Source: a virus
Taxonomy: Duplodnaviria > Caudoviricetes
DNA length: 64,000 bases
Strand: one strand, 5' to 3'
Virus record (IMG/VR): IMGVR_UViG_3300021387_000299
Coordinates: 1 to 64,000 of that record
Shown here: one piece after another, positions 7,458-64,000 of the stretch
Layout of the letters: each line of letters opens with the position of its first letter
Numbering within the stretch: position 1 is the stretch's first letter
Notes under the pieces: generated by a model
Database searches by the model: none
What the model was told of the DNA's origin: nothing
The model's input: only the letters and a program-made list of their open reading frames with translations
Position numbers and translations under genes: made by a program

Positions 7458-7461
7458 CTAT

Positions 7462-7537: not shown

Positions 7538-7543
7538 AAATTT

Positions 7544-7620
7544 GGTCTCGTAGCGCAAATGGTTAGAGTATCGCCTTGTCACGGCGAAGGTTGCGGGTTC
7601 GAGTCCCGTCGGGACCGCCA
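7544..7620 (+). tRNA. tRNA-Asp(GTC), second copy
   Basis: tcgcc-ttGTCac-ggcga; CCA. Confidence 0.95.
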
Positions 7621-7632
7621 TAAATATTTAAA

Positions 7633-7733
7633 AAGTCGCTTACAGCAAAAAATATTTAGTAGACAAAAGGTAAGTCATTAATCTGAAAAATTAAGAAATG
7701 TCGGTTCGAATCCGACCTAAATAAAGCGACTTG
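7633..7733 (+). ncRNA. ACAGCAAA-stem RNA, copy 2, enclosing a complete tRNA-Phe(GAA)-like cloverleaf (7653-7724)
   Basis: aagtcgctt-ACAGCAAA...aagcgactt-g; inner tatttag/ctaaata, ttaat-ctGAAaa-attaa, gtcgg-ttcgaat-ccgac. Confidence 0.8.
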
Positions 7734-7738
7734 CTTAT

Positions 7739-7811
7739 GCTGCCATCGAATAAGAGGTTAGTTCACAACCCTTTCAAGGTTGCAATACGGGTTCGAGTCC
7801 CGTTGGCAGTA
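7739..7811 (+). tRNA. tRNA-Glu(TTC)
   Basis: caacc-ctTTCaa-ggttg. Confidence 0.92.
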
Positions 7812-7844
7812 CTTAATTGGATTTACAGCTAGATCCAATTGCCT

Positions 7845-7921
7845 GGCGATATCGAATAATGGTTTAGTTCGCCACCCTCTCAAGGTGGAAATCGCGAGTT
7901 CGAATCTCCGTATCGTCACCA
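7845..7921 (+). tRNA. tRNA-Glu(CTC)
   Basis: ccacc-ctCTCaa-ggtgg; CCA. Confidence 0.9.
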
Positions 7922-7929
7922 TAACTTAA

Positions 7930-8049
7930 AAGACACGAACAGCAAACCATTAGGACTTTTAATCCCGATGTCGTAGGTTCGATTCCTACATTGTACGCCA
8001 AAACAGTACGATTAGCTCAAATGGTAGAGCGCGAGAAAAATGTGTCTTG
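7930..8049 (+). ncRNA. ACAGCAAA-stem RNA, copy 3, enclosing a circularly permuted tRNA-Lys(TTT) (YrlA-like architecture)
   Basis: aagacac...ACAGCAAA...gtgtctt-g; order is anticodon loop, T arm, acceptor 3' strand+CCA, linker, acceptor 5' strand, D arm. Confidence 0.8.
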
Positions 8050-8184
8050 ACAAGTAAATAAACGCGCAAACACATGGCGGGCAGAGCGTGCAGGGTCCAG
8101 CAAGCCTATGACAGCTAAGTAGATACTACTGGAACGAAGAAACCTCTATCGCGCGTGATCACTCTTAAATAGACCGCCACCAAC

Positions 8185-8255
8185 GCCGGATTAGTATAAT
8201 GGTATTACAGTTGACTTGTAATCATCTGATGGCAGTTCGATTCTGTCATTCGGCA
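8185..8255 (+). tRNA. tRNA-Thr(TGT)
   Basis: gttga-ctTGTaa-tcatc. Confidence 0.92.
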
Positions 8256-8463
8256 CTGACGCACAGAGGATAGATGAATAACTGTGGTTGTATGAAAATT
8301 CCTAGGTTCAATTCATATGATTAAGGAGCACTTCGTGTTCAATCTCTATCTAAAGGGTATAAACCTACCGGACATGGTGATTCTCCGGAGTCCGTGGCGT
8401 GCCCGCGGTATAAAATAATGGGCAATCCCGATGCTTGAAAGTAGAGCATCCTCACCACTCAAT

Positions 8464-8498
8464 AGGATAAGGATTCATTCCTTATCCTTTATTTTTTT
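8464..8498 (+). terminator. intrinsic terminator ending the tRNA array
   Basis: aggataagga/tccttatcct hairpin + T tract. Confidence 0.8.
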
Positions 8499-8522
8499 AT
8501 AAAATTATGGTATAATATAATT

Positions 8523-8750
8523 ATGAAAGATATAGAAAATATTATATGGATAAGAAACAAGATGAATTGCTCAATTCTTGACGCAAAAAAAGCCTATTAC
8601 TTTTGCGACGAGGATAAATTTTTAGCTTGCGCTTATTTAAAAGAAATTTATTATAGTCTTGGACACAACCCGCCTTGGACTAATGAACAATATAAAGAAA
8701 GGGCAAAAGAAAAATTAAATTATGATAAGAATAATAACATTCACCAATGA
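8523..8750 (+). CDS. small protein with EF-Ts N-terminal (UBA-like) motif
   Basis: IRNKMNCSILDAKKAY...D...A..YL resembles EF-Ts LRxxTGxGxxDCKKAL; leaderless after TGGTATAAT. Confidence 0.5.
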   Translation: MKDIENIIWIRNKMNCSILDAKKAYYFCDEDKFLACAYLKEIYYSLGHNPPWTNEQYKERAKEKLNYDKNNNIHQ

Positions 8751-9174
8751 TAATAATAAATTATTTGATTTTAATTTTAATAATCCTATAATAACTTACT
8801 ACCCAGAAACTGGGTGGACTAATATTACCGCAACAAAACAAACCATTACTATTTGCGGCAACTCTTTTTTAGGATATGATAAAGATCTTGTTCACACAAA
8901 TATTGATTCTAGTTTCTTTTCTCTTGGAAAGGACTGGATTGAAGAATTCTATGCGCAAGGTGATAAAATATTAATTATTTCTTCTCTCTCTGATGAACCT
9001 CTATTTATTTTCCATGGAGTTGCAATTCGCATTAGTAATATACAAAATGGTTATGCAGAGTTCACTGTAGATGATAAAAAAATCTATATAAATAATCTTC
9101 ACTGGATTATTATTTCGCGTAATGCATCCCCTGGCCAGCCTCAACGGCCGTTGCCGCCAAAAGATCGCCCATAG
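8722..9174 (+). CDS. hypothetical protein
   Basis: 150 aa ORF. Confidence 0.6.
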   Translation: MIRIITFTNDNNKLFDFNFNNPIITYYPETGWTNITATKQTITICGNSFLGYDKDLVHTNIDSSFFSLGKDWIEEFYAQGDKILIISSLSDEPLFIFHGVAIRISNIQNGYAEFTVDDKKIYINNLHWIIISRNASPGQPQRPLPPKDRP

Positions 9175-9248
9175 GAAATTTTTGAGCAAATATTTGAAAA
9201 TTATAAAAATTATGATATAATATAAAAGGTAAGGGAAATAAAATATAT

Positions 9249-9731
9249 ATGTTAAAAAAATATGGTGAAGGTTCGATGTATTTCTATGCTATTTCAGAAA
9301 CAAATAAAACAATAACTGGAGAACGTATTTATTGGCGAAATCCAGATACATTTACTCCAGATAAAAAACATAGAAATAAATACATAACATACATTTTATC
9401 TTTTTATGACATTAATGGTAACAAATTAAATTCTATAAAGGTTGGAAAAGCAAAAATTGGTTCTACTCGTTTTCAAAATTTATTAAATAAAAATAGAGTT
9501 CCTTCCAGTTATTATATTGTTATTGAATATGCAATATCTTTTACAGATGAAGAATTCGCTCTATCTACAGAAGGAGATCTCCGTTATTATTTCAGACGAT
9601 ATAAAGGAGGAGAAAAAGATGGAATGGATTATACAAAAAATGTAACATTTAATAATGAAGATAGGAAAGATCCAATGTTTAATTCTCTTATTCGTTCTAA
9701 TCTTTCTAAAATGTTCGCAGCAAAATATTAA
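9249..9731 (+). CDS. hypothetical protein, possible GIY-YIG/T5orf172-like nuclease
   Basis: TYILSFY...IKVGKA...R...E pattern; own promoter. Confidence 0.45.
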   Translation: MLKKYGEGSMYFYAISETNKTITGERIYWRNPDTFTPDKKHRNKYITYILSFYDINGNKLNSIKVGKAKIGSTRFQNLLNKNRVPSSYYIVIEYAISFTDEEFALSTEGDLRYYFRRYKGGEKDGMDYTKNVTFNNEDRKDPMFNSLIRSNLSKMFAAKY

Positions 9732-9736
9732 TTTAT

Positions 9737-9765
9737 TTGAAAAATAAAAAAATATATTATATAAT
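9737..9765 (+). promoter_or_regulatory. sigmaA promoter of the TROVE-like gene
   Basis: TTGAAA-17-TATAAT. Confidence 0.8.
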
Positions 9766-9783
9766 ATATATGTAAAGAAAAGA

Positions 9784-9848
9784 AAGACCCCAACAGCAAA
9801 ATTGCATGTTGTATGCGGAGGCCTCGTGGCGTCTTTAAATGGGTCTTG
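9784..9848 (+). promoter_or_regulatory. ACAGCAAA-stem RNA, copy 4 (5' leader abutting the RBS of the TROVE-like gene)
   Basis: aagaccc-ca-ACAGCAAA...gggtctt-g-aaaggag. Confidence 0.75.
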
Positions 9849-9863
9849 AAAGGAGAAAAAGGA

Positions 9864-11366
9864 ATGAGTACATTTTTAAACGCACTTCAGAATGAAACAA
9901 ATTTCACTTATACTGAAAATGGCGGCATTACTCATAAGACAACCAAGAGCGCATTGCTTGATATGTTTGCTATGGGTGCCGCTATGCGTAGTCGTTCTGA
10001 CGCAGACGTTATCCTTATGTTCCGCAATGCATATGCAGAAAATCCTACATATGCACTGAAGTGTCTCTTCTACATCAGAGACGTTCGTGGCGGACAGGGC
10101 GAACGTAGATTTTTCCGTCTTTGTATCAAGGATCTTGCTAAGCAGGATGCTGATGCAATGCGCAGAAATATTCAGAATATCCCTGAATATGGTCGCTGGG
10201 ATGACCTTTATGAACTTGTCAATACTCCAGTAGAAGGAGATATGTGGAAGTTCATGAAGCACCAGCTTGCTCTTGATACTCAGTCAAAGACACCTTCTCT
10301 GCTTGCAAAGTGGATGAAGTCTGAAAATACGTCTTCAAAGGAATCTCGTAGACTGGGTCGTCACACTCGCACACAGCTTCATATGACACCTCGTGAATAT
10401 AGAAAGACTCTTTCTATTCTTCGTGAGCGTATCAACGTTCTGGAAAGACTTATGAGTGCAGGCGAATGGGATAAGATCGAGTTCGATAAGATCCCTTCAA
10501 AGGCTGGTTTCATTTATAAGAATGCTTTCGCGCGCCACGACGTAGAGCGCATGAAGGCGGAAAAGAACGTTCAGTCATATCATGACTTCGTAAGAGATGA
10601 AACCAAGACTGTCAATGCTAAGGATCTCTATCCATATGAGATGGTTGCAAAGGCAATCTCTGCCTATGATCCCTACGATCGTTGGGGAGACTCTACCGAC
10701 AGAGCAGTTGTAAACAAGTACTGGAACAACTATATGCAGAGCTTTGATGACTTCAAGTTCAATGGCATCGCTGTTGTAGATACTTCTGGTTCTATGCGTT
10801 GGGCTGGTACTACTGTACATCCTATTGATGTAGCTATCTCACTTGGTATTTGTTGCGCGGAAAAGGCCCAGGGTCCTTTCCATGGACACTATATCTCTTT
10901 CGCTTCTCGTCCTCAGCTGATTAAGGTTGAAGGTGTTGACTTCGTTGACAAGGTTCAGAGAATCTATAAGACAAATCTTTGCGATAACACAAATATCGCA
11001 GGAGTATTTGATCTGCTTCTTAGTACTGCACTTAGAAATCACTGCGCACAGTCAGAGATTCCTGAGAATGTAGTTATTATCAGCGATATGGAGTTTGACT
11101 CTTGCTCAATTAGCTTCAGAAAGGCTAGAGCCGCAACAGAGCTGGAAAGAATTGCTCAGAAGTGGGCAGACAACGGCTATCAGATGCCTAACCTCATCTT
11201 CTGGAATGTAGACGCACGTCAGAACAACATTCCTGCGCTGGGTGAGAGAATCTCATATGTATCTGGTATGAGTCCTTCTATCTATCAGACAATCGCAACA
11301 GGCAAGACTGGTTACGATCTGATGATGGATAAGTTGAATTCTGCTCGTTACGATGCAGTAAAGTAA
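9864..11366 (+). CDS. DUF2828-family TROVE/Ro60-like protein with C-terminal vWA domain
   Basis: N-term TENG, RDVRGGQGER, YGRWDDL, LAKW; MIDAS DTSGS, ISDMEFD, IFWNV; RBS gives start MSTFL. Confidence 0.85.
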   Translation: MSTFLNALQNETNFTYTENGGITHKTTKSALLDMFAMGAAMRSRSDADVILMFRNAYAENPTYALKCLFYIRDVRGGQGERRFFRLCIKDLAKQDADAMRRNIQNIPEYGRWDDLYELVNTPVEGDMWKFMKHQLALDTQSKTPSLLAKWMKSENTSSKESRRLGRHTRTQLHMTPREYRKTLSILRERINVLERLMSAGEWDKIEFDKIPSKAGFIYKNAFARHDVERMKAEKNVQSYHDFVRDETKTVNAKDLYPYEMVAKAISAYDPYDRWGDSTDRAVVNKYWNNYMQSFDDFKFNGIAVVDTSGSMRWAGTTVHPIDVAISLGICCAEKAQGPFHGHYISFASRPQLIKVEGVDFVDKVQRIYKTNLCDNTNIAGVFDLLLSTALRNHCAQSEIPENVVIISDMEFDSCSISFRKARAATELERIAQKWADNGYQMPNLIFWNVDARQNNIPALGERISYVSGMSPSIYQTIATGKTGYDLMMDKLNSARYDAVK

Positions 11367-11376
11367 CAAAATTTTG

Positions 11377-11404
11377 GACGGTTTTCTATAAACCGTCTTT
11401 TTTT
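11377..11404 (+). terminator. intrinsic terminator
   Basis: gacggttt/aaaccgtc + T7. Confidence 0.85.
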
Positions 11405-11458
11405 ATTTTTATATATAACGATAGAAGGATATTGCTTCTAAAAGGAGGGACAATCAAG

Positions 11459-11626
11459 ATGACAACAGAAAAGAAAAAGTTTTTAGATCAAATTGGCGTT
11501 AGCTATTTATGATCTAAAATTTTAGAGAAATTTGCTTCATTAGAAAATCGTGTCGATGAAATTGAAACCGCTGAATATGTCATCTATGGTGGTTCCGCAT
11601 CTGATGTAATGAAGGAGGGCGAGTAA
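11459..11626 (+). CDS. small tail-associated protein (TGA=Trp at 11510)
   Basis: RBS aaggagg; FLDQIGVSYL*SKI matches the common LDxxGLxYLWxKI tail-fibre N-terminal motif; TAATG-coupled to next gene. Confidence 0.7.
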
Positions 11627-12144
11627 TGAAAAGAGTAATCGAAGCTACAATTCGCCTTCGTAGAGATAACGATTATAACTATGAAGCAATTAAAGACAAA
11701 TTTGTTCCAGCTAATGGTGAAGTAGTTCTAGTTGATACTGCGCGAGATGGTCTCCGCGCAAAAGTTGGCAATGGATATAATACATATGCCGAGCTTCAAT
11801 TTACAGATGCAGATCTTCGCAATGCTGTTCTCCAAGGTTATTATGAAAATGGTGTTTTTTATAGTGATCCTATTAAACAAACTCCAATGGCGAATATGGT
11901 TAATAAAATCTATATTGATATTCCGCGTAGAAAAATCTACTATTTCAATGGTACAGAATTTATTCCAGCAGAAGCCCATTTAACTACAGCAAGCGCAGAA
12001 ACAGCAGGCGTAATGAAATTATATAGTACCACAGGACAAAATACTGATGGAACAATGACACAAAAAAGCATCACTGATGAATTAAATCAAAGAATTAAAA
12101 CAGACATTGATGCTGAAAACGAATTATTAATTTTTAGTTTATAA
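11626..12144 (+). CDS. tail fibre-related protein (hyaluronidase/Mtd-like N-terminus)
   Basis: LRRD...FVPANGE...KVGNG..Y.EL; KLYSTTGQNTDGTMTQK. Confidence 0.75.
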   Translation: MKRVIEATIRLRRDNDYNYEAIKDKFVPANGEVVLVDTARDGLRAKVGNGYNTYAELQFTDADLRNAVLQGYYENGVFYSDPIKQTPMANMVNKIYIDIPRRKIYYFNGTEFIPAEAHLTTASAETAGVMKLYSTTGQNTDGTMTQKSITDELNQRIKTDIDAENELLIFSL

Positions 12145-13593: not shown

Positions 13594-13821
13594 ATGATTA
13601 AAGAACAAACTTTAATAAAAAAAGATACTTCTTATAATTGAAATAAAGCTAAAAACTTCATTCCAAAAGAGAATGAAGTATTAGTATATACTGATTTTAA
13701 TCCTAATAGAATTAAAATTGGTAATGGAAAAACTAAAGTAAATGATCTTCCATTTGTTGATAACAATGAATATAGTATTGAGGAAGATACTTTAGTTATT
13801 AATACAAAAGGAGAATTTTAA
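13594..13821 (+). CDS. hyaluronidase/Mtd N-terminal-like protein (TGA=Trp at 13639)
   Basis: DTSYN*NKAKNFIPKENE...KIGNGKTKVNDLPF; TGA at the conserved NW position. Confidence 0.8.
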
Positions 13822-13823
13822 TT

Positions 13824-14450
13824 ATGGCTGAAATTATGGCTGAAATTTCTAAAATTAAATTAAATGGAACTACATATAATCTGAAAGATAATGAGGCGAG
13901 AGAAGAAATAGATAATCTTTCTGAAGTTGCAGTTTCTGGTAATTATGATGATTTGATTAATAAGCCAATTATAAATATTTACATAATAGAAAACAATGGC
14001 GAATTAATTGCATGTCAAAAAGATGGCGAAACGCAATATACTTTTGAAGAAATTGTTGGATATTTAATTGATGGTTTTTTTATTTGTGCAAATTACAAAG
14101 AACAAACTTTTTTATATGACGGCGCTTGAGATACAGCTGGAAAAAGAATTGTTGATGGTATTGACTTGACACAGACCAATATGACTCCAACCGTATTAAG
14201 ATTTGCCCATTATCCTGTATATTATGCAGATTCTATTTCAGATAATTTTCAATTTTTAGTTTTTAATGATAACAATAGTATTACTTATGGAGTTCAACCT
14301 GGATTTTCAACAGTGGCTTTTTCTGGAAATTACAATGATTTATTAAATAGACCAACTATCCCTGATTACGGACTACAAGTTACAGATGACAATGATGGTA
14401 ATATTGTACTAGATGTTATTTCCATTGCTAGTACAGAAGGGAGTTTTTAA
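13824..14450 (+). CDS. tail-associated protein (TGA=Trp at 14127)
   Basis: Track ORFs 13824 and 14166 are in one frame; SGNYxDLxNxP repeats in both halves. Confidence 0.8.
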
Positions 14451-15799
14451 TGGCAAACAATAAACATTATATAGTTTCTGAAACTGAATTAACAAATATC
14501 GCCAATGCAATTAGATATAAAAATGGTGAAGCTTCTACATATACAATTGCACAAATGCCTAATGCAATTAAAACATTAGAATCTCAAAATGATACTTATG
14601 TAGATCAATCAATTCGATCTGCTTTTGCGCAAAAAGGCATATTTATTCCAGAAAATACTCTTTTATCTGAACTTCCATCAATTATTATTGATGATTGTAA
14701 TTGAGTGGTAGGAGATGGATGCAATTATTTTCATTACGAAGTTCCAGAACATGTTCTTCCAGTTGATACTGTTCATCATCTATGTACTTTCACAGGAACA
14801 ACTTCAATTGGCGCTAGTCTAATTTCTTATGATAAAAGTAAGCAACATACAACAAAAGAAACTATTTGAAGTTCAGATTATTATGATTTAGATGAAAAAT
14901 ATAGGGGAAAATTAGTATTCTTAAAAATGGATGGCACGCTTGAAGTTGGAATTTATGGAGATAATCATTATTCTTTTGCTGGATACACTGGCTCCGGATA
15001 TTCTGAACGTTGTGCGAATTCTGCTCAATTAGTTCGTGCAGAATTAGGAACTAATTGTACTGCTCATACAAACGCTTTTCAAGGAGCAACAAATCTTAAA
15101 GAAGTTTATTTTTCTAAAGATTGTAAATGAGGACCCATGAATCGTGCTTTTTATAACTGCCAATCTTTAAAAAAAATTTATATAAATAACCCAGAGATAT
15201 GGACTGGAATTGACCAATATCAATTTTACAATTGCACTAATTTAATTGATTTTACATTACCTTCATCGGTAACATGAATTGGCGCCTATGCTTTTTATAA
15301 TTGCAAGAGTTTAGTTGAAATTAATTTAAATGATAATATTAGTTCAATTGGAGATCATGCTTTTTATAATTGCACTTGCTTAAAAAATATTCATATTCCT
15401 AAAAGTTTAACAAAAATACCCTCTTATTTTTGTTTTAATTGTAGCAATCTTCCTGAAATTATTATACCAAACAACATTATAGAAATAGGAGATTCTGGTT
15501 TTTATTATTGCTCTAAAATTACACAATTAACAATTCCAGAAAGTGTTACCACAATAGGAAAGCGTGCTTTTACATTAATGTCCAAATGCCTTGAATATCA
15601 TTTCTTAAGTGCAACGCCTCCATCTTTAACTCTTTATACTGTTGGTTCTAACAGTTATACTCCTTTTGGCACACTTCCAACTGGAGCAAAAATTTATGTT
15701 CCTTATTCTTCCGATCATTCAATTTTAAATGCGTATAAAACCGCTGAAAATTGATCAACTCATGCCGATAATATTTATGAAGAGGAGGGTAATAAATAA
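14450..15799 (+). CDS. BspA-type leucine-rich repeat (LRR_5) protein, 449 aa, 5 in-frame TGA
   Basis: IGxxAFYNCxxL repeats; C-term AYKTAEN*STHADNI; TGA at 14702, 14867, 15128, 15275, 15752; TAATG couplings at both ends. Confidence 0.85.
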
Positions 15800-18063
15800 T
15801 GACAAGTTCAAAATTAAAAACAATAACATTTAATAATACTTTAACTAATCAAAGTGTAACATATCCACTACCAACAAAAACTAGCGACTTAACAAATGAT
15901 AGTGGTTATATTACTTCTTATACGGAAACCGACCCAACTGTTCCAGAATGGGCAAAACAAGCAACCAAACCAACTTATACAGCAAGTGAGGTAGGTGCTG
16001 CAAGTATATCTGATTTAAATAATTATGTTGTAAAAAGAAATTATGATGATGCCAACTCTAGTTATATAACTAATGATTCTGGACGTATTACTATCGAACA
16101 AAGCACTTCACGCTTACTGAATAATTCAAAAATTGATTTAAATGGGTCAACAGTAGCTTTAAAATCTTGGAATGGACCAGCAGTTGGTGCTGAAAAAAAT
16201 GCAAATGTTATTACATTAACTCCAACTCAAACTACTATTAAAAATATAATTACTCCAACGAATGATGGAGATGCGGCTAATAAAAAGTATGTAGATGATT
16301 CGGTTTCAGAAATAGAACCTCTCGTCGTTGATGTGAGCGAAGATCCTGATACTGGAGTTATAACATCTAGTAAGACTTATGAAGAGATAGATGCTGCCAT
16401 ATTAGCTGGAATCAATGTTGTTCTTAAAAACGAGTATAATAATATTTTTCCATATCAAGGACAAAGTTCTCTTTGAAGTGATAGAGCGCTTGCATATAAT
16501 TTCTATAGAATCGAATACATGGAGCAGCAGCTCAGCATTAATGGATATTTTATCGCTCCTGGGACAGCTAGCTGATCAAAAGGACGTATTTCTGAAAATA
16601 TAGTAATGACTGAAGCGTTTGCTACTAGACGACGTAGTGATGATAATAACATAGCATATACAATTTCTAATGAGCCAGATTATGACTTTGGTTTACTTGT
16701 ATCTTCTGGATCTACAATTATTTCTCAAATAACAGCCGCAGAGGATGGCGTAGATATTATTTCCGCACAAGGAAACATACGATTCTCTGGAGAACACATA
16801 GGAGCATCAAATACTGATCCTGCTTGATCTCCAACAGATAATAATGACTTCACTACAAAAAAATATGTTGATGACGCTGTATCTAGTATTGTTATTCCAA
16901 CAGTTCCAACAACAGTATCATCTTTCACCAACGATTCTGGCTATCAAAACTCAACACAAGTTCAATCAGCTATTAATACTGCTATTGGTAATATCAACTC
17001 ATTTGAGGTTGAAGTCGTATCAGCACTTCCAACCTCAAATATTAATGATCATACAATTTATTTTGTTCCACAAGCAGTTAATTCATCAACTCATGATGAA
17101 TATATGTATATAAATAATAATTGAGAATTAATTGGGAATACTTCTGTTGATTTAAGCGGATACTTACAAAAAACAGAAATTGCGGACTGGGCTAAAGCGA
17201 GCATTAAACCCAGCTATACTGCAACAGAAGTTGGGGCTATGAGCATTTCTCATGCCGCAAACGCAATTACAAGTGCCGATATTACGGCTTGGAATAATAA
17301 ATCTAATTTTAGTGGTTCGTATAATGACTTAACAAATAAACCGACAATTCCTACGGTTCCAACTAATGTAAGTTCATTCACTAATGATGCTGGTTATTTA
17401 ACCTCATTTACTGAAACCGATCCTACAGTCCCTGCATGGGCAAAAGCTGCGACTAAACCGACATATACAGCTGCCGAAGTAGGGGCGTTGCCAGATACAA
17501 CAGATTTAAGTAAATTTTTAAAAAATGAAGAAATCGTAACTGGAGGTTTATTTACAGGTGGAACAGAAGCTGTAACAATTGAAAAATCCGGCACTAATCC
17601 AGCATCGCTTTTACTTGGCGCAACGACAAATAAGAAAAACGGTTTTATTTTAGGAACTAATAGCGGCAGAATTGCTGGTTTTACTCAAAATAACTCTACT
17701 CTATTAGAAATAAGTAATTTTAATCAAGTTTCAATAGAGAATATTGTTACACCAACTACAGATACCATGGCTGCTAATAAGAAATATGTTGATGATGCTA
17801 TTGCTTCCGTTACACCAACAGAAACTGATCCTATCTTCTCTGCAAGTGTGGCCGCAGGCATTTCATCTACGGATATTTCAAATTGAAATGCAAAATCTAA
17901 TTTCTCTGGTTCTTATAATGATTTAACTAATAAACCAACTATTCCAGCAGCAACAACAGTAACAAATACTCTTGCTTCTGGAACACTTATTGCTACAATT
18001 AATGGCACAAATATCTACGCACCAACATATACTAATGGAGATAATCTTGCTTACGGAGGTTAA
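15799..18063 (+). CDS. tail fibre protein, 754 aa, 5 in-frame TGA
   Basis: Repeats TNDxGY, ETDPTVPxWAK, AANKKYVDD, SGSYNDLTNKPTIP; TGA at 16474, 16573, 16825, 17122, 17884. Confidence 0.85.
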
Positions 18064-18066
18064 TCT

Positions 18067-18969
18067 ATGGCACAGGTTTTGATTACTGATACAAAATTAG
18101 ATAATTTAGCACAAACAGTTAGTAATAAATCTGGCGTAGCATTACCATTAACAATTGATGAAATGGCAACTGCGGTTGCCGGCATTTCAACCGAAGGAAT
18201 TACACCTACAGGCACTATACCTATTACCCAAAATGGCACATATGATGTTACTAATTATGCATCTGCACAAGTCGCTTTACCCTTTAAGCATATATATTTT
18301 TCTAAAGATAATATAACCCCAGCAAATGGAGATATATATTTCAATATTATAGATGAGGTTATTCAATCTGATTCAACTACATCTATAGATGTAATTCCAT
18401 CTGGGTATTTAAGCGATTATCAATATTCTCAATTTAGTAGCCCATCTAATTTTTATACAGATGCATCATCAAATACATATGCAACTGTTCGTGCTACAGG
18501 TGGAAATAGTGCTGAAACATACATATATTTTACATTTGATACATCTGCTTTACCTCCTGTATTTTATGCAGCGTCTGTATCTGCTACAATTAAAATGCAT
18601 CAAAGAGCATATAGTAGCTCTTTTCAACAAGCATATTTTGTAATATGTCTAGATGAAAAAGAAATTGACGAAACAAGAGTAACTTTTAGATATAGTGATT
18701 CAGCAACTACAATAACTATTCCAACAACGAGTATCCCCGATTGAGATGGAAGCGAAAGACTTTCTTTAAAATTTTATGTTCAAAAAACCAGTAGTGATGG
18801 AACTACTTATCGTTCAATTGACTTATACGGTGCAAATTTAAAAATTAATTATTCTACCACTCCAAGTTATTTAACTTCTGTAATAACAGAAAAATATAAT
18901 GGAACAGACTGAATTCCGACTTCTTTTAATAATACTATCGCAATAAATAATAATTTCATAAGGAAATAG
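18067..18969 (+). CDS. tail/baseplate-associated protein, 2 in-frame TGA
   Basis: ITQNGTYDVTNYASA motif; TGA at 18742, 18910 (YNGTD*IP). Confidence 0.8.
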
Positions 18970-18983
18970 AAAGGAGAAAATAA

Positions 18984-19193
18984 ATGGCGCAAGTTTTAAT
19001 TACAGATACTAAACTCAATAGTTTAGCTAACGCTATTGCCGAAAAAGCCGGAATTGAAGCTCCTTTAACTATACAGCAAATGGAAGATGCAATTGAAGCT
19101 TTAAGTTGGGCAATATATTATACTGGTTCATCAGAACCAAACAACTCCCAAGGAAATAATGGAGATATTTATCTACAAACAGAATCTGAATAA
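18984..19193 (+). CDS. small tail protein, N-terminal paralogue of 18067
   Basis: MAQVLITDTKL shared; YTGSSEP..GNNGDIYLQT. Confidence 0.8.
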   Translation: MAQVLITDTKLNSLANAIAEKAGIEAPLTIQQMEDAIEALSWAIYYTGSSEPNNSQGNNGDIYLQTESE

Positions 19194-19207
19194 GGAGAAA
19201 TTAAGTT

Positions 19208-19858
19208 ATGGCAACTATTACTGAAACTTTTCATCCTGTTGGTATCGAAGTTCTTGATGCTAGTGGAAATTCAATAGAAGTAACTAATTCAGAACGATTT
19301 ATTGGGGAAACATCTGGTGCAACAACATCAAGTAATTATGGACAATATTATTTGGAACCTGGAAGTTCAGCAGAAACTTTTGGCTGAATACAATTTGATT
19401 GTAGCTCTATTCCAGCTAATGCCATTATTACTGAAGTAACGGGTAAATTTAAAATATATTCATCAGGAAGCGCAACTTACATTTCTCCTCGTCAATTACG
19501 TTTATATTATAATAATAGAACTGATACTAAAGGATTTTCTGTTAATCAAGTGTCAAGTTCAGCTGTAATGGATTTAGATTGCGGAACTAATTGAACCAGA
19601 GAAATGCTAGATGATTTAGAATTAAGAATATATTCAAAACGAACTTCTAGAAATGTTACATCTAATTATTATGTTCGTATTTATGGCGTTGATATTACTA
19701 TTACTTATGAAATACCCAATAATTCTGGATTATTTGTAAAACAAAATGGAATTTGAACTCCAATTTCAAAAATTTATCTTAAAACAAATGGCTCTTGAGT
19801 TGAACAAGAACCTACATACCTATCTGATAATAATATAAAATATTTAAAGCGCGGCTAA
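19208..19858 (+). CDS. tail-associated protein, 216 aa, 4 in-frame TGA (absent from ORF track)
   Basis: RBS aaggag; FDCSSIPANAII; KQNGI*TPISKIYLKTNGS*VEQ; TGA at 19385, 19592, 19754, 19796. Confidence 0.85.
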
Positions 19859-57368: not shown

Positions 57369-57959
57369 ATGACAATTACCGCAGATGCAGTTTTAACATA
57401 CATCCTTGTTGCTGTTGGTGGCTTTTTAGTAAAGGTAATACTTGATAAAATTAAACAATCAGCAGAAGATAAAACAGATAAGGCTCGTAGATTTGAAGAA
57501 CAGTCATGGAAAACAGAAATTACAAAAATTGTTAGAGAAGAAAACTTATCATTAAAAAAAGAATTAAGTAATAGAATTGAAGAAATTCAAAAAGAAAATA
57601 GAAAAAATTATGATTATTGGCAAAAAATGTATTGGGATGCCGTTGATCGTTTAGAAAAAGTTCAGAAAAAATTTGAAAATCTTGAAAAACAAGATATTAT
57701 TTTTTACAGAAATTTGTTAATTGATACTTGTAAAGAATATATAGCAAAGGGTGAACTCACAGAATATCAATTCGATAGATTAACAGAGTGGTATAAGATT
57801 TATAAAGAACTTGGTGGAAACCATCAAGGTGATTTATATTATAAGAAAGCAGTTGCTTTACCAATTATTCCAGATAAGCATTCTGAAGAAGATCAAAAAA
57901 TGCATAGTATCTTTGACTACGAAGATTTAGTTGAATCAGAAAACAAAAATAAGGGATAA
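57369..57959 (+). CDS. membrane-anchored holin-like phage protein
   Basis: N-term TM, coiled coil, YKELGGN motif. Confidence 0.6.
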   Translation: MTITADAVLTYILVAVGGFLVKVILDKIKQSAEDKTDKARRFEEQSWKTEITKIVREENLSLKKELSNRIEEIQKENRKNYDYWQKMYWDAVDRLEKVQKKFENLEKQDIIFYRNLLIDTCKEYIAKGELTEYQFDRLTEWYKIYKELGGNHQGDLYYKKAVALPIIPDKHSEEDQKMHSIFDYEDLVESENKNKG

Positions 57960-57990
57960 CCTATAATTTAGGTTATCCCTTATTTTTTTT
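57945..57990. terminator. bidirectional terminator at strand convergence
   Basis: aaaaataagggataaccta/taggttatcccttattttt. Confidence 0.85.
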
Positions 57991-58390
57991 ATGCTTGTCT
58001 TGTAAACTTAATTACATTTACCTGCTCTTGGATTAATTGAGAAATATAGAAGTCAAGATCTGTATAAACTTCAGTTAAGACCTTCTGCATTTCCTCAGTT
58101 AATAAAGCTTTAATTGCATCAAATGTCTTATGATAAGCAATATCATGTTCTTCTGGGCCAAATCTACCCTGTTCTTTTAATTCATCAACGTAGGTTTGAT
58201 TTGTAGCAATAACGCAAGTTTCAACAATTCCCATTAACATATCTGAATACTTGTTAAATAATTCATTTTGTGAATTATCTTGCATTTCTTTAACCTTCTT
58301 CCGCATAAAAGCAATACCATAAGTGCAAAGAATACCAATTAAAGGTAATAAACAAGTAAAGAAAATTTCTTGTAATAGCGCAGCTGTCAT
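57989..58390 (-). CDS. LL-H-like holin
   Basis: Single N-term TM, V.ATNQTYVD.LK..G.F; RBS aaggag. Confidence 0.65.
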   Translation of the reverse strand: MTAALLQEIFFTCLLPLIGILCTYGIAFMRKKVKEMQDNSQNELFNKYSDMLMGIVETCVIATNQTYVDELKEQGRFGPEEHDIAYHKTFDAIKALLTEEMQKVLTEVYTDLDFYISQLIQEQVNVIKFTRQA

Positions 58391-58411
58391 TATCTTTCTC
58401 CTTAATAAAAA

Positions 58412-58506
58412 TGGCGGGGGATGTAGGACTCGAACCCACACCCGCGGCTATGGACACCGCTACCCTGGTTTTGAAGACCAGTGTGCTACCATTACACTAA
58501 TCCCCC
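58412..58506 (-). tRNA. opal suppressor tRNA(UCA), Trp-like body with a 25-nt extra arm
   Basis: Reverse complement: gggggat-ta-gtgt-aatggta-gcac-a-ctggt-ctTCAaa-accag-[25 nt]-gtggg-ttcgagt-cctac-atccccc-g-cca. Confidence 0.93.
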
Positions 58507-58533
58507 ATAAGGGTAGAGAACTTTCGCACTCTA

Positions 58534-58905
58534 CTATGCTTTAGTAACTGTTAATTTAGTTACTTCTGGCTCTTTTTTAAATAAATTAATATAAAGCAAT
58601 CCATCTTTAACTTCATATGTTACAGACTTAAACATGTCTGCTTTAATATCAAATTTAGAGCTTACTTTATAATCATAGTTTAAAAGATCATTATGAGTGA
58701 CGCCTTCAATCACCAATCTATCACGACCATCCTCATTAACAATATCTACCTTAACATCATCTTCTTTAACACCAACGATATTATGGACAAGAACAACTCT
58801 ATCTTCAAGAGTTTTAATTGAATAAGGCTTCATGTCATGAACAGGACGGCTAAAAGTATACGCTGGTTTATCCCAGTCGAAAAAAGAATCTAAATCAAAC
58901 ATCAT
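58534..58905 (-). CDS. small heat-shock protein (Hsp20/alpha-crystallin)
   Basis: GVKEDDVKV...LVIEG...DGLLYINL.K. Confidence 0.75.
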   Translation of the reverse strand: MMFDLDSFFDWDKPAYTFSRPVHDMKPYSIKTLEDRVVLVHNIVGVKEDDVKVDIVNEDGRDRLVIEGVTHNDLLNYDYKVSSKFDIKADMFKSVTYEVKDGLLYINLFKKEPEVTKLTVTKA

Positions 58906-58919
58906 ATTAAAAAATCCTC

Positions 58920-59141
58920 CTAAAAAGTTTCTAAAATAAGACCCTGAGCTAAATCATTATAAACAGTTTTATAATTAAAACGCTCTGTTATCATCCAAGT
59001 AGGTTTTCCATTTTCCAAAAAACTCTCTTGACGTGGATCTTGAACTATAATTTGCAAGGTAAAAGATTCTGGATATATAAATCTAAACAAGAAGTTCTCT
59101 ACCTTTTTTAATTGTTCATAGTTATCTACTCTTAATTCCAT
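58920..59141 (-). CDS. hypothetical protein
   Basis: RBS aaggag. Confidence 0.7.
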   Translation of the reverse strand: MELRVDNYEQLKKVENFLFRFIYPESFTLQIIVQDPRQESFLENGKPTWMITERFNYKTVYNDLAQGLILETF

Positions 59142-59164
59142 CTATCTTTCTCCTTACAATTGTT

Positions 59165-59193
59165 ATTATACAAAAATTTTCTAGTGAAGTCAA
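59165..59193 (-). promoter_or_regulatory. sigmaA promoter for the orf-hsp20-suppressor tRNA-holin unit
   Basis: TTGACT-17-TATAAT on the minus strand. Confidence 0.75.
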
Positions 59194-59219
59194 TAAAAAA
59201 AAAGAGGATTAATTAAAAA

Positions 59220-59531
59220 TTAATCCTCTTCTATGCTGTTATTTTGTTGAAATTGTCTTCAAGAGGTTAACTGACCATATAATTCAAACATATAGTTAGA
59301 GCCTCTTGATAAAATTATTGCAGTAGCAATTATACCAATAATGGGCCATTGTTCAACAAAACCTAACATTACAAAGAAATTAAGACTCATATCATAGCAA
59401 AGTAAGCCACTTAAAATCAAAGCAACAATAATTTGTCATTGAATAGAACCATTTTTATAAATTTGTTGTCCATATGAAATTAAGCCTTCAATAAGAATAG
59501 CTACAGCAATGAATGGAAAAAAACCGCTCAT
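59220..59531 (-). CDS. holin-like 3-TM protein, 2 in-frame TGA (absent from ORF track)
   Basis: MSGFFPFIAVAILIEG...IQ*QII...LSRGSNYMFEL; directly follows endolysin; RBS aagggg. Confidence 0.75.
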
Positions 59532-59561
59532 AATATTTAACCCCTTTATTCTTATTTACAT

Positions 59562-60293
59562 TTATTTTCAATTGCCAATAAATCTACCATTTTTATCAAA
59601 CATGACAGGGACAGTATGCTTGCCAATAAATAAGGCACCGTTCTTTCCGAAGAAATACCAGTTCCCATCAAGTTTGCACCAACGAGATGAGGCCATAACC
59701 CCATGATCAAGAACAAATCTCTTAACGCCATCGTCATTAATCCATGCATGTTTCTGCATATAACCTTCAGCGTCAGTATGATATGTCTTGCCATCAACTG
59801 TAACCCATTGATTTCTTACCCAAGAATCACCGAGTTTGCATCTCTGTCCTTTACTATCCTTCACCCATACAGCTTTCTGATCTTGCAATGCGTTAAATCT
59901 GAAGGCTCCAAGAATATCTAACTTCAATTTAACTGTGCAGTATCCGCCATTGCCGCCTTGGTTCTGCCCGAAGATGTATGCATATCCATCCTCTTCGGCG
60001 TATCTTACAAGCATACCGACATGAGAAGAAGGACATGAGCTACCCATTGCCCAGAAGAGCCAATCGCCCGGTTCTAGCTTTTTCTTGTCTGTAATAAATT
60101 TTGCATACGCTGAATATTCAATTCTGTTATACCAGTATCCATCTGCCCAACCAGTTTTTGTAGGTAATACTGGAACTTTAATATACCAACAGAAACGTTT
60201 GAATGCATCAACGCACTGTGCCCCATAGACACCATCATAGTCATCGACTTTCCCATTATATTGGTTAATAAAATCTTGCACTATTTTATTCAT
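59562..60293 (-). CDS. endolysin: CHAP domain plus choline/cell-wall-binding repeats
   Basis: DGVYGAQCVD, HVG, GQNQ; W-rich repeats; ends GN-TGA-K-TAA. Confidence 0.9.
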
Positions 60294-60336
60294 AACATTT
60301 CCCTCCTTTTATTAAAAACAAAGGAGGAAAATAAAA

Positions 60337-60894
60337 TTAACAACACTCCTTTGTTTTTTTACAATATTCTTTATATTTTTTATCTTGATCTGATATTATT
60401 GAATTAATATCAAAATCTGTTGTTTTTCTTTTTACATAAAGTGATTCAGCTCCAGCCAATTCTTCGTCTACATCACAAATCAAGCATCCAAGGAATTGTG
60501 CATCAGCAACTTCGCCCATATTCATTAATTCAATATACATTTTTTGATATAAGGTTTTTGTGCTACGCTCTCAATCTATTCATTTTTCTAAACCTGTTTT
60601 TACCGCATTTCTTTTTGTTGTAGCATCAACATCTTTGCGTTCATATGCATACCAAGAGTTAGGAATTACTTTTGGATCATCTACCGATTTAGTTTTTATT
60701 AATTTATTATGATGTCGTAAATAATATCTATTAATTTCCATATAATTTTGACTTTCGGATAAATAATGATATCTATGACATTCTGCATAACCTTTTAAAT
60801 TTAAAAAACAGTAATAATTAGACATTTGATCGTGAATCATCAAACCTTTTATCATATGTGCACTTAATTCAGAATAAATTTCTTCAAGTGTCAT
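60337..60894 (-). CDS. ferritin-like helical protein, 2 in-frame TGA (joins two track ORFs)
   Basis: GLEK*ID*ERSTKTLYQKMY bridges ORFs 60580..60894 and 60337..60540 in frame. Confidence 0.75.
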
Positions 60895-60895
60895 A

Positions 60896-61306
60896 TTAGA
60901 TTCTTACTGCGGTAACATCAATTGTGCTATAAGTAGCTTCAATTCCCGCATTTCTTAAATCAATTGTTGTTGTTGTAGAACAAGGGCAATTTATATTATT
61001 ATTATCTGGAACTTGAACTAAAGTTGTAAAACTGAATGGAATTTGTGAAGTGGCATCTGCGGCAGTAATTAAAGAAACTGCTTGTGGCTGAATTACACCG
61101 TTCTTCTCTAATTGAACAATAATTTCTCCAGCCGCACTTCCAATTACACTACCAGAAACTGAAACTTCATAAACTCCACATTTATTAAATTGAATTGTTG
61201 AAGTACCCAATAATTGAGTGCTTGTACCCTTTAATAAAGCAACGGTTGTTAATGGAATAATTCCATTAGCGGCAACATTAACATTTTTAGAATATACTTC
61301 TAACAT
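60896..61306 (-). CDS. BclA-C/C1q-like beta-sandwich protein
   Basis: GVYEVSVS...L.KNG..P.A. Confidence 0.55.
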   Translation of the reverse strand: MLEVYSKNVNVAANGIIPLTTVALLKGTSTQLLGTSTIQFNKCGVYEVSVSGSVIGSAAGEIIVQLEKNGVIQPQAVSLITAADATSQIPFSFTTLVQVPDNNNINCPCSTTTTIDLRNAGIEATYSTIDVTAVRI

Positions 61307-61379
61307 TTAATCATTCCTCCTAAACTTTTCCTTTTGATTAAAAATAAAAAGGGCAACTAAATAGTTACCCTTTTATTTA

Positions 61380-62045
61380 CTAAAGTGTTGCTCCACCACA
61401 AGCGCAGAACGGATTTGTTCCTGCGTAGTAAGTGCTTGCACTTGGGTAGCGAACTACACCAGCAACTGCCTGTTGAAGCTGTAACTGGTTAATTTGACTC
61501 TGCATATCTGCCATACGATTACCTGTAATAGCATCAAGAATCTTCTGAGTTTGTGCTGTTGTATTTTCGTTAATTGCGGCAGTATTAATTGCATTTGCAT
61601 AATTTACGCCATCAATTGCGCGAAGTGTCTGGCAGCAACATTCATTTTCTTTTGCTAATAAATTAGCCTGACCAACAGCTAAACCACCAATATCTCTGGC
61701 AAGTTCGCTGTATTTATCACTTAAAGCATTAAGTGTGTCGTGGAATGTCTGATTAGTCGCGGCTACTGCTTGCGCAGTTCCAGCGTTGACGGCTGCGAGA
61801 GTCTCTCTCTGATTTGCCATCATATTCTGAGTATCAAATCCACGATCTACTTGTGATTGTGTCGCCAGATTTTCATAACCGATTGCATTAGCGAAGCCGT
61901 TATTACCCCAGCCGCTAAAGCCACCGCCAGCGAGAATCAATAAAGCAAAAATCCACATCATGGAGTTGCCGCCCCACATATCACCATAACCATTACGATC
62001 GCTCAATAAAGCAACATCACTAGCTGATAAACTTCCATTTTCCAT
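61380..62045 (-). CDS. conserved phage protein with CCC motif
   Basis: GGG-rich TM N-term, ECCCQTLRAIDGVNY. Confidence 0.75.
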   Translation of the reverse strand: MENGSLSASDVALLSDRNGYGDMWGGNSMMWIFALLILAGGGFSGWGNNGFANAIGYENLATQSQVDRGFDTQNMMANQRETLAAVNAGTAQAVAATNQTFHDTLNALSDKYSELARDIGGLAVGQANLLAKENECCCQTLRAIDGVNYANAINTAAINENTTAQTQKILDAITGNRMADMQSQINQLQLQQAVAGVVRYPSASTYYAGTNPFCACGGATL

Positions 62046-62101
62046 TTTAAATTCCTCCTAATTAGTAAATTAATAGTCAAAGTTTTACCAATTAGGATTC
62101 T

Positions 62102-62768: not shown

Positions 62769-63320
62769 TTATTTAGCTCTTTTTCAGCTATTTCCATCCT
62801 TTACATAAATTGCAGATACTGTTTTTCAGACTCCATTAACATTAACATATGCGGTATTAATTGTTTTTCAGCTTCCATTAATATTAACATGACTTGAATA
62901 AGTTATTGTAGAAGGTGCTGTCTTAAAGTTTACATCAATGGTCATTTTTCCCATTTTTTCTCCATTTATGTAAATTCAATCTGCTGAATTAGTGCTGTCT
63001 GCTCCGGTATTTGCTTCTCCATGCACTGTATATGTAGTGTTAGCACTTAATCCTGTTAAATTAATAGATCCTAACGGAAAATCATAGCTATCTCCTCCAT
63101 ATACTGTACCTTGGCAAGCAGTTGTGCCAGAGTTACTTGGAGATCCTGTGCTTCTTTTAATTAATCATTTTACATTATTTGCATTAATGCTAGCAAAAAT
63201 ACCAGGAGCTGTTATTCTTAAATATACTGTTGCAGTAGCTGATGATTGAGTAATATTAGAAAAATCAACAACAACAGAAAAAACTTGTAAGCCATCACTT
63301 GTTGATCATGTACTTGCCAT
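62769..63320 (-). CDS. tail-associated protein, 6 in-frame TGA (absent from ORF track)
   Basis: LTGLSANTTY (FN3-like); C-term NINGS*K/NVNGV*K/DGNS*K repeats. Confidence 0.8.
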
Positions 63321-63335
63321 ATAATATCTCCTATA

Positions 63336-64000
63336 TTAATCAGTATATTTTAATCAAACATCACCATTTACTCCGCCAGAAGGATTCGAAGTACTTGCAA
63401 AAATATTTCTTAAAGATCCTAATTTTTGATTATTACCTGGATTTAATAATGGAATACCAGCAGAACTAATAATTTGTACTGCACTGGTGCCGTCTGTAAA
63501 ATTAACATTTCGAATCTTTGTATAAGAATTTGTTGTAGATTTATTGTATACACTATAATCAGTATAGGTAGCACCATAACTACTAAAAGCATTTTCTATT
63601 TCACTAAAAAGTCTATTATTACTATCATTAGTTACTAATAATTTATAGGTTTCAGTTTCTGATGGATCTGTAGAACTTAATGCAAAAGAGCTTTTTGTTA
63701 TTAAACCACCAGGAACGGTAATTTTCCCAGTGGACAAATTATAGGTTGCTCTATTTGCAGTTGTTTTTGGAATCTGCCCATAGAGATCATTATAACTAGT
63801 CTCTCCTGTTGGTGCGGTAGGACTAGTACTCCCAGTACTACCACCAATTAAAGGTAATTCTGCATTTGTTGCATACGCCTTGTAGGTTCTCATTAAAGTG
63901 TTGGTATTGTCATTATGATCAGCATTAGTTAAAATTCAATAAGTTCCATTATAAACAAAAACACTGATTGAATCTTTATGTAATTCGTTAGCATGTGTTA
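63336..64000 (-). CDS. tail fibre protein, partial (continues past window), with TGA read-through
   Basis: VFVYNGTY*IL...GGVNGDV*LKY. Confidence 0.75.

Follow-up and report, generated by a model that had tools for sequence, protein, structure and literature searches.

A phage UGA suppressor tRNA with a conserved second anticodon-like arm that spells the tryptophan anticodon

How stop-codon-reading transfer RNAs (tRNAs) of recoded phages are charged in a standard-code host was raised by Borges et al., and phage synthetase genes have only rarely been found (bioRxiv 10.1101/2021.08.26.457843). The phage sequence IMGVR_UViG_3300021387_000299 of the IMG/VR database gives this question a specific form. 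Its tRNA gene at positions 58412-58506 (minus strand) carries the anticodon UCA, which matches the opal codon UGA, in the normal anticodon arm, and the tryptophan (Trp) anticodon CCA in the loop of an extra hairpin at the variable position. What is a second, CCA-bearing arm doing in a UGA-reading tRNA? The window analysed here comprised the first 64 kb (positions 1 to 64,000) of this 177,819-bp virus record, which has a GC content of 34% and an estimated completeness of 95%.

Relatives of its terminase were found in Geobacillus virus E3, Enterococcus phages VRE9_4/H1/EF1, Alicyclobacillus phage KKP_3916, phAss-1, and SPbeta-like phages. The phage appears to be of the siphovirus type with a Firmicutes-like host, and choline-binding repeats in its endolysin also suggest a Firmicutes-type host.

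The tRNA(UCA) gene and the meaning of TGA

ARAGORN called the 95-nucleotide (nt) gene at 58412-58506 with anticodon UCA and the label 'SeC', and the general tRNA model of Rfam matched it with 62 bits (E 1.6e-12), with 22 nt within the variable region counted as inserted. Read 5' to 3', the first half of the molecule is GGGGGAU-UA-GUGU-AAUGGUA-GCAC-A-CUGGU-CUUCAAA-ACCAG-GGUA- and the second half, which includes the encoded CCA end, is GCGGU-GUCCAUA-GCCGC-GGGU-GUGGG-UUCGAGU-CCUAC-AUCCCCC-G-CCA. The acceptor has 7 bp and the T stem 5 bp (7/5 branch geometry), and the 4-bp D stem (GUGU/GCAC) encloses a 7-nt D loop (AAUGGUA) and contains the pair U11-A24, not C11-G24. The acceptor stem starts with G1-C72, G2-C71, G3-C70, G4-C69, and G5-C68; 34 of 47 aligned relatives have A1-U72, the first pair expected of a bacterial tRNA-Trp, in which pairs 2-71 to 5-68 are G-C-rich. 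Position 58415 holds the discriminator G73, a bacterial Trp identity element.

The first anticodon stem-loop (ASL1), CUGGU-CUUCAAA-ACCAG, spans 58465-58481 with the decoding anticodon UCA at 58472-58474, as placed by ARAGORN, Rfam, and the sequence itself. It is joined by the linker GGUA (58461-58464) to the second, anticodon-like arm (ASL2), GCGGU-GUCCAUA-GCCGC (58444-58460), in which CCA (58451-58453) stands in anticodon register after a U33-like U. A second linker, GGGU (58440-58443), precedes the T stem and resembles an ordinary 4-nt tRNA-Trp variable loop. The variable region thus has 25 nt, with a 5-bp stem, the 7-nt loop G-U-CCA-U-A, and 4-nt linkers on both sides; both hairpins were present in the minimum-free-energy fold. 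The original prediction, made from the letters of the window without database searches, had described an opal suppressor tRNA with G73, an acceptor of 7 bp, a D stem of 4 bp, an anticodon arm like that of tRNA-Trp, and exactly this variable region, and had set it apart from bacterial tRNA-Sec with its 8-bp acceptor and 6-bp D stem; every detail agreed with the sequence.

Compared with a bacterial tRNA-Trp, the molecule retains G73 but lacks the short variable loop (4-5 nt) of a class I body, and CCA is found only in the extra arm, with UCA in its usual place. The two arms read as repeat-like units, A-CUGGU-CUUCAAA-ACCAG-GGU and A-GCGGU-GUCCAUA-GCCGC-GGGU. An ordinary tRNA-Trp(CCA), called by ARAGORN at 4485-4560 (plus strand), has the anticodon arm ACGGU-CUCCAAA-ACCGU, to which ASL2 is identical at 12 of 17 positions and which resembles the ASL2 of the related tRNAs described below. 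This gene is a member of a cluster of 22 tRNAs at 175-8256 (plus strand), the tRNA(UCA) being the 23rd ARAGORN call in the window. The whole genome encodes 29 tRNAs, those outside the window lying at 143.7 kb and 170-174 kb. A MAFFT alignment of the tRNA(UCA) with three other tRNAs of the phage was uninformative.

A UGA-reading tRNA has codons to serve in this genome. Between 60 and 130 kb, coverage by open reading frames (ORFs) of at least 100 amino acids rose from 0.59-0.90 to 0.96-1.00 once TGA was read as sense. A TGA-rich late gene block on the minus strand starts inside the window (62769-64000) and extends to about 131.6 kb of the genome. This block (62.7-131.6 kb) encodes portal, terminase, virion, and tail proteins, as annotated by PHROGs and by tblastn against phage records (Pfam searches with nine late proteins gave nothing useful). 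Its large ORFs contain 14-22 in-frame TGA each; one of 2801 amino acids, for example, has 22 TGA and 6 TGG. Over the 22,291 codons of 35 late ORFs, 186 TGA and 101 TGG together made up 1.29%. In the plus-strand early/replication block, TGA and TGG made up 1.31% of codons, 90% of these being TGG. The near-equal combined shares indicated that TGA stands in for about 65% of late-gene TGG. This pattern differs from the rare UGA of a few selenoprotein genes, which are directed by a selenocysteine insertion sequence (SECIS), as the 186 in-frame TGA of the 35 late ORFs replace TGG.

The ORFs were translated with TGA as X and compared by tblastn with standard-code relatives, after removal of the antisense frame. 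At about 35 aligned TGA positions, the relatives had W at 13, glycine once, and serine (Ser) never, and TGG codons gave the same profile. The first TGA of the terminase gene was aligned with a W that is invariant in five relatives. By this alignment evidence, TGA is a sense codon for Trp in this phage. The tRNA(UCA) is the only candidate TGA decoder among the 29 tRNAs of the genome, and it belongs to a known kind, the suppressor tRNAs of TGA-to-Trp phages. Genes for tryptophanyl-tRNA synthetase (TrpRS, PF00579) and RF1 (PF00472) were searched for in the phage genome and neither was found; without a TrpRS gene of its own, the phage would rely on the TrpRS of its host.

Conservation of the second arm and of its triplet

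An exact search of IMG/VR with the anticodon arm recovered relatives of identical unusual layout. In one of them (locus L013), the extra arm ACGGU-CUCCAAA-GCCGU is identical at 16 of 17 positions to the anticodon arm of the tRNA-Trp(CCA) of the studied phage. An unbiased scan of IMG/VR, in which GGTCTTCAAAACC, 20-34 free bases, and GGTTCNANTCC were matched and the variable region was left unconstrained, yielded 65 distinct sequences that fell into two classes. Among the 7/5 tRNA(UCA) with G73 and a long variable region, 40 of 41 distinct sequences had UCCA in the loop of the extra hairpin; most had a Trp-type acceptor (AGGGGCU...AGCCCCU) and the D arm GUGUAAUGGUAGCAC. In the tRNA-Sec class (8-bp acceptor, 6-bp D stem) the raw count of TCCA in the arm was 1 of 24, and this lone sequence (L040) proved to be a 5'-truncated copy of a two-arm family member, which leaves 0 of 23 among genuine tRNA-Sec. 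On the raw counts the difference was highly significant (Fisher p = 2.5e-15). The probability of UCCA at positions 2-5 of one random 7-nt loop is about 1/256, and chance is ruled out for the ASL2 loop by its conservation, as UCCA was retained by 40 of 41 relatives and found in none of the 23 genuine tRNA-Sec. G73 was a selection criterion for the 41 sequences, so that its constancy there is not independent; it was also present in all 47 aligned members, which were found with three different patterns.

The family is defined by a hairpin at the variable position whose stem has 5-7 bp and whose loop, about 7 nt long, has the form N-U-C-C-A-N-N, as in the GCGGU-GUCCAUA-GCCGC of the studied tRNA. 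Its loops were mostly CUCCAAA (17 members), which is the canonical anticodon loop of tRNA-Trp, and GUCCAAA (17), followed by UUCCAAC (3) and single variants that include the GUCCAUA found here; the equivalent of A36-A37-A38 was kept in most. The stems, on the other hand, differ completely among members (CGGGU/ACCCG, UACCGU/ACGGUA, GGAGG/CUUCC, CACAG/CUGUG, and others). In the 47 distinct aligned members, all five pairs of the extra helix showed two-sided changes and 93.9% of cells were paired; the covariation score of the whole structure was 0.578, compared with 0.168 after shuffling, and none of 500 shuffles scored as high. A near-invariant loop on stems that were turned over with compensation, across very different acceptor and D arms, indicates from sequence comparison that the second arm is under purifying selection. 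The prediction of a second, CCA-bearing anticodon-like arm, which hinged on conservation of the loop CCA, was thereby borne out: the loop was almost invariant across dozens of diverged phage tRNAs and the 5-bp stem covaried.

At the junctions, family members have the normal single nucleotide before ASL1, 0-7 nt between the two arms, and usually GGGU or GGU before the T stem. The layout is thus that of a normal tRNA-Trp into whose junction another anticodon stem-loop has been placed. This fits a tandem duplication, which probably copied the anticodon stem-loop and the variable loop attached to it as one unit. A search with the same anchors and a short variable loop returned only 18 loci, many of them with A73, so that the two-arm form is the commoner one for this anticodon-arm motif.

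Members of the family also occurred in bins of metagenome-assembled genomes labelled Oscillospiraceae, Bacilli, Coriobacteriia, and Treponema, where they are probably prophages or mis-binned phage contigs. One locus, L085 (IMGVR_UViG_3300028591_000266, 7266-11819), is syntenic with the studied region, with a dUTPase and three neighbours at 53-76% identity, and has a two-arm tRNA at the same place whose acceptor, D arm, and loop (UUCCAAC) are strongly different; either this tRNA evolved fast or it was replaced at a fixed locus. In a blastn search with the 5-kb region around the studied tRNA, a dUTPase fragment was the only match. On a 263-kb contig (L017; IMGVR_UViG_3300045988_160394), the same UCA arm at about positions 100-240 is followed by an insertion of about 60 nt and then by a GGTTCGA T arm, without an ARAGORN call; this relative may contain an intron or have expanded further.

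Amber suppressors provided a comparison in which the stop codon and its usual amino acid differ. A scan with GGTCTCTAAAACC, a free region, and the T arm, with the variable region unconstrained as in the UCA scan, gave 70 distinct tRNA(CUA) with long variable regions. The extra loop carried a glutamine (Gln) anticodon, CUG or UUG, in 50 of these (typically as C-U-CUG-A-A), and CCA in none. The CUG/UUG of the amber arms indicated that the arm triplet follows the amino acid usually given to the stop codon, instead of being a structural motif that stays constant. A purely structural alternative, in which the CCA loop would pair with UGG in the D loop, was rejected, as the amber counterparts keep this D loop and carry CUG or UUG.

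When metagenomes were scanned for tRNAs that combine a CUA anticodon and a CCA arm, two phage contigs, each about 145 kb long, were found; their tRNAs have Trp-type bodies and lie at 6819-6911 (L348) and 150-242 (L349), the latter right next to a plain tRNA-Trp(CCA). A GIY-YIG endonuclease gene of L348 contains two in-frame TAG codons, one of which corresponds to W in 116 of 120 homologues (motif KYG-W-xNF) and the other to Y, F, or W. TAG in L348 looks like Trp and not Gln, on the thin evidence of one gene with two TAG codons. A database protein (P0002) with 96% identity to this GIY-YIG protein has Q in the TAG column that is W in 116 of 120; the Q probably reflects automatic translation with code 15, and would be a mis-annotation if TAG is Trp there. 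In the published table of Seki et al. (bioRxiv 10.1101/2025.10.30.685624), tRNACUA-44 is of the type with CUA and a CCA arm and showed strong activity at UAG in E. coli extract, with no inserted residue named for it.

Across these sets, the arm triplet equalled the cognate anticodon of the amino acid assigned to the stop codon: CCA with TGA read as Trp, YUG with CUA, and CCA combined with CUA where TAG aligns with W. It is tempting, though tentative, to see here a general suppressor design in which a spare stem-loop at the variable position would present a cognate anticodon, namely CCA for Trp and CUG or UUG for Gln, and serve as a portable identity module, through which synthetases that read anticodons would charge a tRNA with a stop codon as its decoding target.

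The second arm as a candidate handle for TrpRS

The identity set of bacterial tRNA-Trp comprises G73, C34-C35-A36, and the first acceptor pair (PMC9976931). With moderate confidence, we infer that the tRNA is a Trp-derived opal suppressor in which ASL2 gives the host TrpRS the CCA identity element that was lost from ASL1. In the proposed mechanism, ASL1, directly behind the D stem, would decode UGA on the ribosome, and ASL2, at the position of the variable arm, keeps the U33-C34-C35-A36 loop of a normal tRNA-Trp. Host TrpRS would read G73 together with the CCA of ASL2. Both arms have the size of an anticodon arm and meet at one junction with flexible linkers, so that ASL2 could lie beside ASL1 or take its stack: it might swing on its long linkers into the anticodon-binding site of TrpRS, or it might trade places with ASL1 in the stack below the D stem while the tRNA is being charged. 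On the ribosome, ASL2 would be accommodated as class II variable arms are.

Published cell-free data were reanalysed. The supplement of Seki et al. (bioRxiv 10.1101/2025.10.30.685624) lists 31 phage tRNA(UCA) assayed with 216UGA-sfGFP in E. coli extract with no added synthetase; the sorting into 13 two-arm and 12 plain tRNAs was made in the present analysis. One of the assayed tRNAs, UCA-3, equals locus L076 apart from the CCA end (L076 ends in CCAU). All 13 two-arm transcripts were active at UGA, with 26,699-58,947 units (blank 5,403; wild type 69,124), and 2 of the 12 plain tRNAs were active. Median read-through was 48,745 for two-arm and 8,653 for plain tRNAs (Mann-Whitney p = 2.4e-4; Fisher p = 2e-5). 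According to Seki et al., Trp was inserted by all 13 tRNA(UCA) that were tested by mass spectrometry. The plain UCA-11 and UCA-13 are encoded in 'code-change operons' beside phage TrpRS genes, on which they depend (bioRxiv 10.1101/2025.10.30.685624). This suggests two alternative answers to the charging problem, namely to bring a synthetase or to add a CCA handle. A further entry of the table, tRNAUCA-4, combines a class II-like D arm, GGCCGAGUGGUUCAAGGC, with a GUCCAAA arm and was active at UGA, which suggests that the second arm has been combined with quite different tRNA bodies.

Three functions had originally been proposed for the arm. Restored recognition by TrpRS is favoured by the reading of TGA as Trp, the lack of a phage TrpRS, the Gln loops of the amber suppressors, and the cell-free results; it is the best supported of the three and remains inferred. 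A removable or regulatory insert found no backing, since no processing signal was evident and unprocessed in vitro transcripts of relatives were active in the published work. The third function, charging with Ser, is discussed below.

Several observations weigh against a role of ASL2 in TrpRS recognition. A class II variable arm points away from the anticodon, so that TrpRS would reach ASL2 only if the tRNA rearranges. Mycoplasma uses a plain tRNA-Trp(UCA). The B. subtilis TrpRS is cited in PMC2965240 as working with an opal variant of its own tRNA. Because plain tRNA-Trp(UCA) can be charged and two plain phage tRNAs were active, the arm is not strictly required; it probably raises efficiency or specificity and is not indispensable. 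The cell-free contrast is confounded, as the acceptor stems of the two-arm tRNAs are also of the canonical Trp kind and the plain tRNAs belong to other lineages, and it is a correlation, not proof. The studied copy itself departs from the family consensus, with G1-C72 in place of A1-U72 and U in place of A after CCA. Finally, the sole exception among the 41 sequences (L015, 2905-2999) is a Trp-bodied tRNA(UCA) with AGGGGCU...G73 and a 28-nt variable region without UCCA.

Five other explanations were weighed against recognition by TrpRS. It is rather unlikely that ASL2 acts instead on the ribosome or in maturation, by changing hinge flexibility in competition with RF2, by recruiting a modification enzyme such as MiaA, which acts on A36-A37-A38, or by adding stability. 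The retention of A36-A37-A38 in most ASL2 loops would fit such recruitment, but the studied copy has U, not A, at the equivalent of position 37. A purely structural role gives no reason for a loop that spells the cognate anticodon, and it leaves the CUG or UUG in place of CCA in amber suppressors unexplained. In favour of an effect on decoding, ASL2 joins the hinge between D stem, anticodon stem, and variable region, where the Hirsh changes G24A and A9C alter the reading of UGA (PMC13092985).

A two-headed tRNA, in which stacking conformers alternate so that ASL2 decodes UGG and ASL1 decodes UGA, seems very unlikely. Taken together, ASL2, the 4 nt that link it to the T stem, and the T arm do resemble the 3' half of a normal tRNA-Trp, and ASL1 has the normal 1-nt junction to the D stem. 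However, wobble already allows a U34 anticodon to read UGG, an ordinary tRNA-Trp(CCA) is encoded by the phage as well, and an arm that protrudes between D stem and anticodon stem is without precedent on the ribosome.

It is highly improbable that ASL2 serves as a decoy or regulator that mimics uncharged tRNA-Trp to a T-box leader (of trpS or the trp operon) or absorbs a host anticodon nuclease. The Firmicutes-like host gives this idea some basis, as trpS and trp genes of Firmicutes are, by textbook knowledge, under the control of T-box leaders that pair with the CCA anticodon. Stem I of a T-box, however, gauges the distance between anticodon and elbow, which an arm at the variable position would not fit; the counterpart with a Gln loop occurs in very different kinds of phages; and the arm was always part of a decoding tRNA and never a separate RNA.

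That ASL2 is a neutral, functionless relic of the tandem duplication is barely credible. The repeat-like units of ASL1 and ASL2 and the 16 of 17 identities between the arm of L013 and a real tRNA-Trp anticodon arm are what such a relic would leave, but an almost invariant loop on stems turned over by compensatory changes speaks strongly against it. Charging by seryl-tRNA synthetase (SerRS), with UGA read as Ser, or an identity as tRNA-Sec can practically be dismissed: the ARAGORN label SeC and the combination of long arm and G73, which are Ser determinants (PMC7609411), are outweighed for tRNA-Sec by the 7/5 fold with a 4-bp D stem and U11-A24 instead of an 8-bp acceptor with 13-bp branch and a 6-bp D stem with 4-nt D loop, and by 186 in-frame TGA that exactly make up the missing TGG, and for tRNA-Ser by 4-nt linkers and a 7-nt loop instead of linkers of at most 2 nt and a 3-5-nt loop, and by the absence of Ser, against 13 Trp, at the roughly 35 aligned TGA positions, which refutes the proposed Ser charging.

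If ASL2 does act as a handle for TrpRS, either a synthetase reads an anticodon loop from a non-canonical position or a tRNA flips between charging and decoding stacking conformers. Such a molecule would represent a new five-arm tRNA architecture with decoding and identity on separate arms, and would show that the link between anticodon and amino acid identity can be uncoupled in nature. A built-in cognate anticodon loop would then be a simple and widespread answer to the charging question in recoded phages. In genetic-code expansion and suppressor-tRNA engineering, an added spare arm could keep charging efficient after a change of anticodon. For annotation, two-arm tRNAs are currently mislabelled as SeC, Pyl, or undetermined.

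Genomic setting and comparison with known systems

The lysis cassette, which occupies the distal end of the late strand, contains the tRNA(UCA) gene. Along the minus strand the order is endolysin, terminator-like hairpin, promoter-like site, orf73, Hsp20-like gene, tRNA, holin, and bidirectional terminator. The endolysin (59568-60293, minus strand) was assigned by domain and PHROG matches and has choline-binding, cell-wall-binding repeats. A terminator-like hairpin at 59200-59232 precedes the near-consensus sigma-70-type promoter-like site TTGACT-17-TATAAT (59165-59193, minus strand), recognized by consensus match only, which could drive expression of orf73 and of the genes behind it for the Hsp20-like protein, the tRNA, and the holin. 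The small Hsp20-like gene (58534-58905, minus strand; weak Pfam and PHROG matches) lies just upstream of the tRNA in a common unit. Directly downstream is the holin gene (57989-58390, minus strand; phrog_13712, E 2.8e-23), which has an AAGGAG ribosome-binding site of its own and is free of in-frame TGA. A strong bidirectional terminator-like hairpin (57945-57987; 19-bp perfect stem, T runs on both sides) separates the convergent early (plus) and late/lysis (minus) units; weak Rfam matches to 'Plastid-psbA', MIR7504, and snoR24 all coincided with it and are artefacts.

Holin, endolysin, and their small neighbours have zero in-frame TGA, and the suppressor tRNA thus lies in a standard-code segment beside the recoded block. 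The whole lysis cassette (57989-62057, minus strand) is free of TGA although it adjoins the TGA-rich late block; in other recoded phages, lysis genes are reportedly biased to recoded stops. Borges et al. described code-change genes similarly placed next to lysis genes (bioRxiv 10.1101/2021.08.26.457843). A second TGA-rich gene block is found on the plus strand at 13803-19858 (17 TGA and 6 TGG, 74% TGA), amid otherwise TGA-free early genes; it includes a protein with BspA-type leucine-rich repeats (14432-15799, plus strand).

A full-text literature search, which did not span every journal, found no published description of a two-arm suppressor design; the 'two anticodon arms' of tRNA-Ser in one chloroplast paper are unrelated speculation. 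Among known molecules, the class II tRNAs (Ser, Leu, bacterial Tyr, Sec) share with the two-arm tRNA an extra helix between anticodon and T arms and its plausible recognition by a synthetase. They differ in that the enzyme reads the length and orientation of the arm and not its loop sequence, and in having linkers of at most 2 nt and loops of 3-5 nt; the two-arm tRNA has a 5-7-bp stem on linkers of 2-7 nt, a 7-nt loop that spells the cognate anticodon, and Trp as its amino acid. Anticodon-mimicking hairpins in mRNAs, such as the E. coli thrS operator and those in yeast aminoacyl-tRNA synthetase mRNAs (PMC9976931, PMC6542539), likewise present an anticodon-like stem-loop elsewhere, which the cognate synthetase reads with its anticodon-binding domain. 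These mimics control translation of an mRNA, whereas the mimic in ASL2 sits within a decoding tRNA. The tRNA-Sec, allo-tRNA, and selC* molecules of Mukai et al. (PMC5389517) also combine a UCA anticodon with a long variable arm and G73, but differ in their 8/5, 8/4, or 9/3 geometry, in their D stems of 6 bp, and in the amino acid that they receive, Ser or Cys.

The closest counterparts are the suppressors of TGA-to-Trp (code 4) phages (Borges et al., bioRxiv 10.1101/2021.08.26.457843; Seki et al., bioRxiv 10.1101/2025.10.30.685624). Common to these and the studied phage are a phage-borne UCA tRNA beside lysis genes, use of TGA as Trp mainly in late and structural genes, and a low-GC phage in a standard-code host. 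The library of Seki et al. contains close relatives of the studied tRNA, which shares the UCA anticodon and the in-frame TGA aligned with Trp; the CCA-bearing second arm is mentioned in neither paper. Borges et al. proposed that host TrpRS is 'intrinsically susceptible' (bioRxiv 10.1101/2021.08.26.457843); the arm suggests, unlike this, a dedicated structural solution. The 'code-change operons' of phages (the Jade phages in Borges et al.; the AP1 and HF2 pairs in Seki et al.) face the same problem of placing Trp onto a UGA-reading tRNA. They provide a dedicated TrpRS with plain tRNAs that are inert in E. coli extract, whereas the studied phage has no TrpRS gene and a two-arm tRNA.

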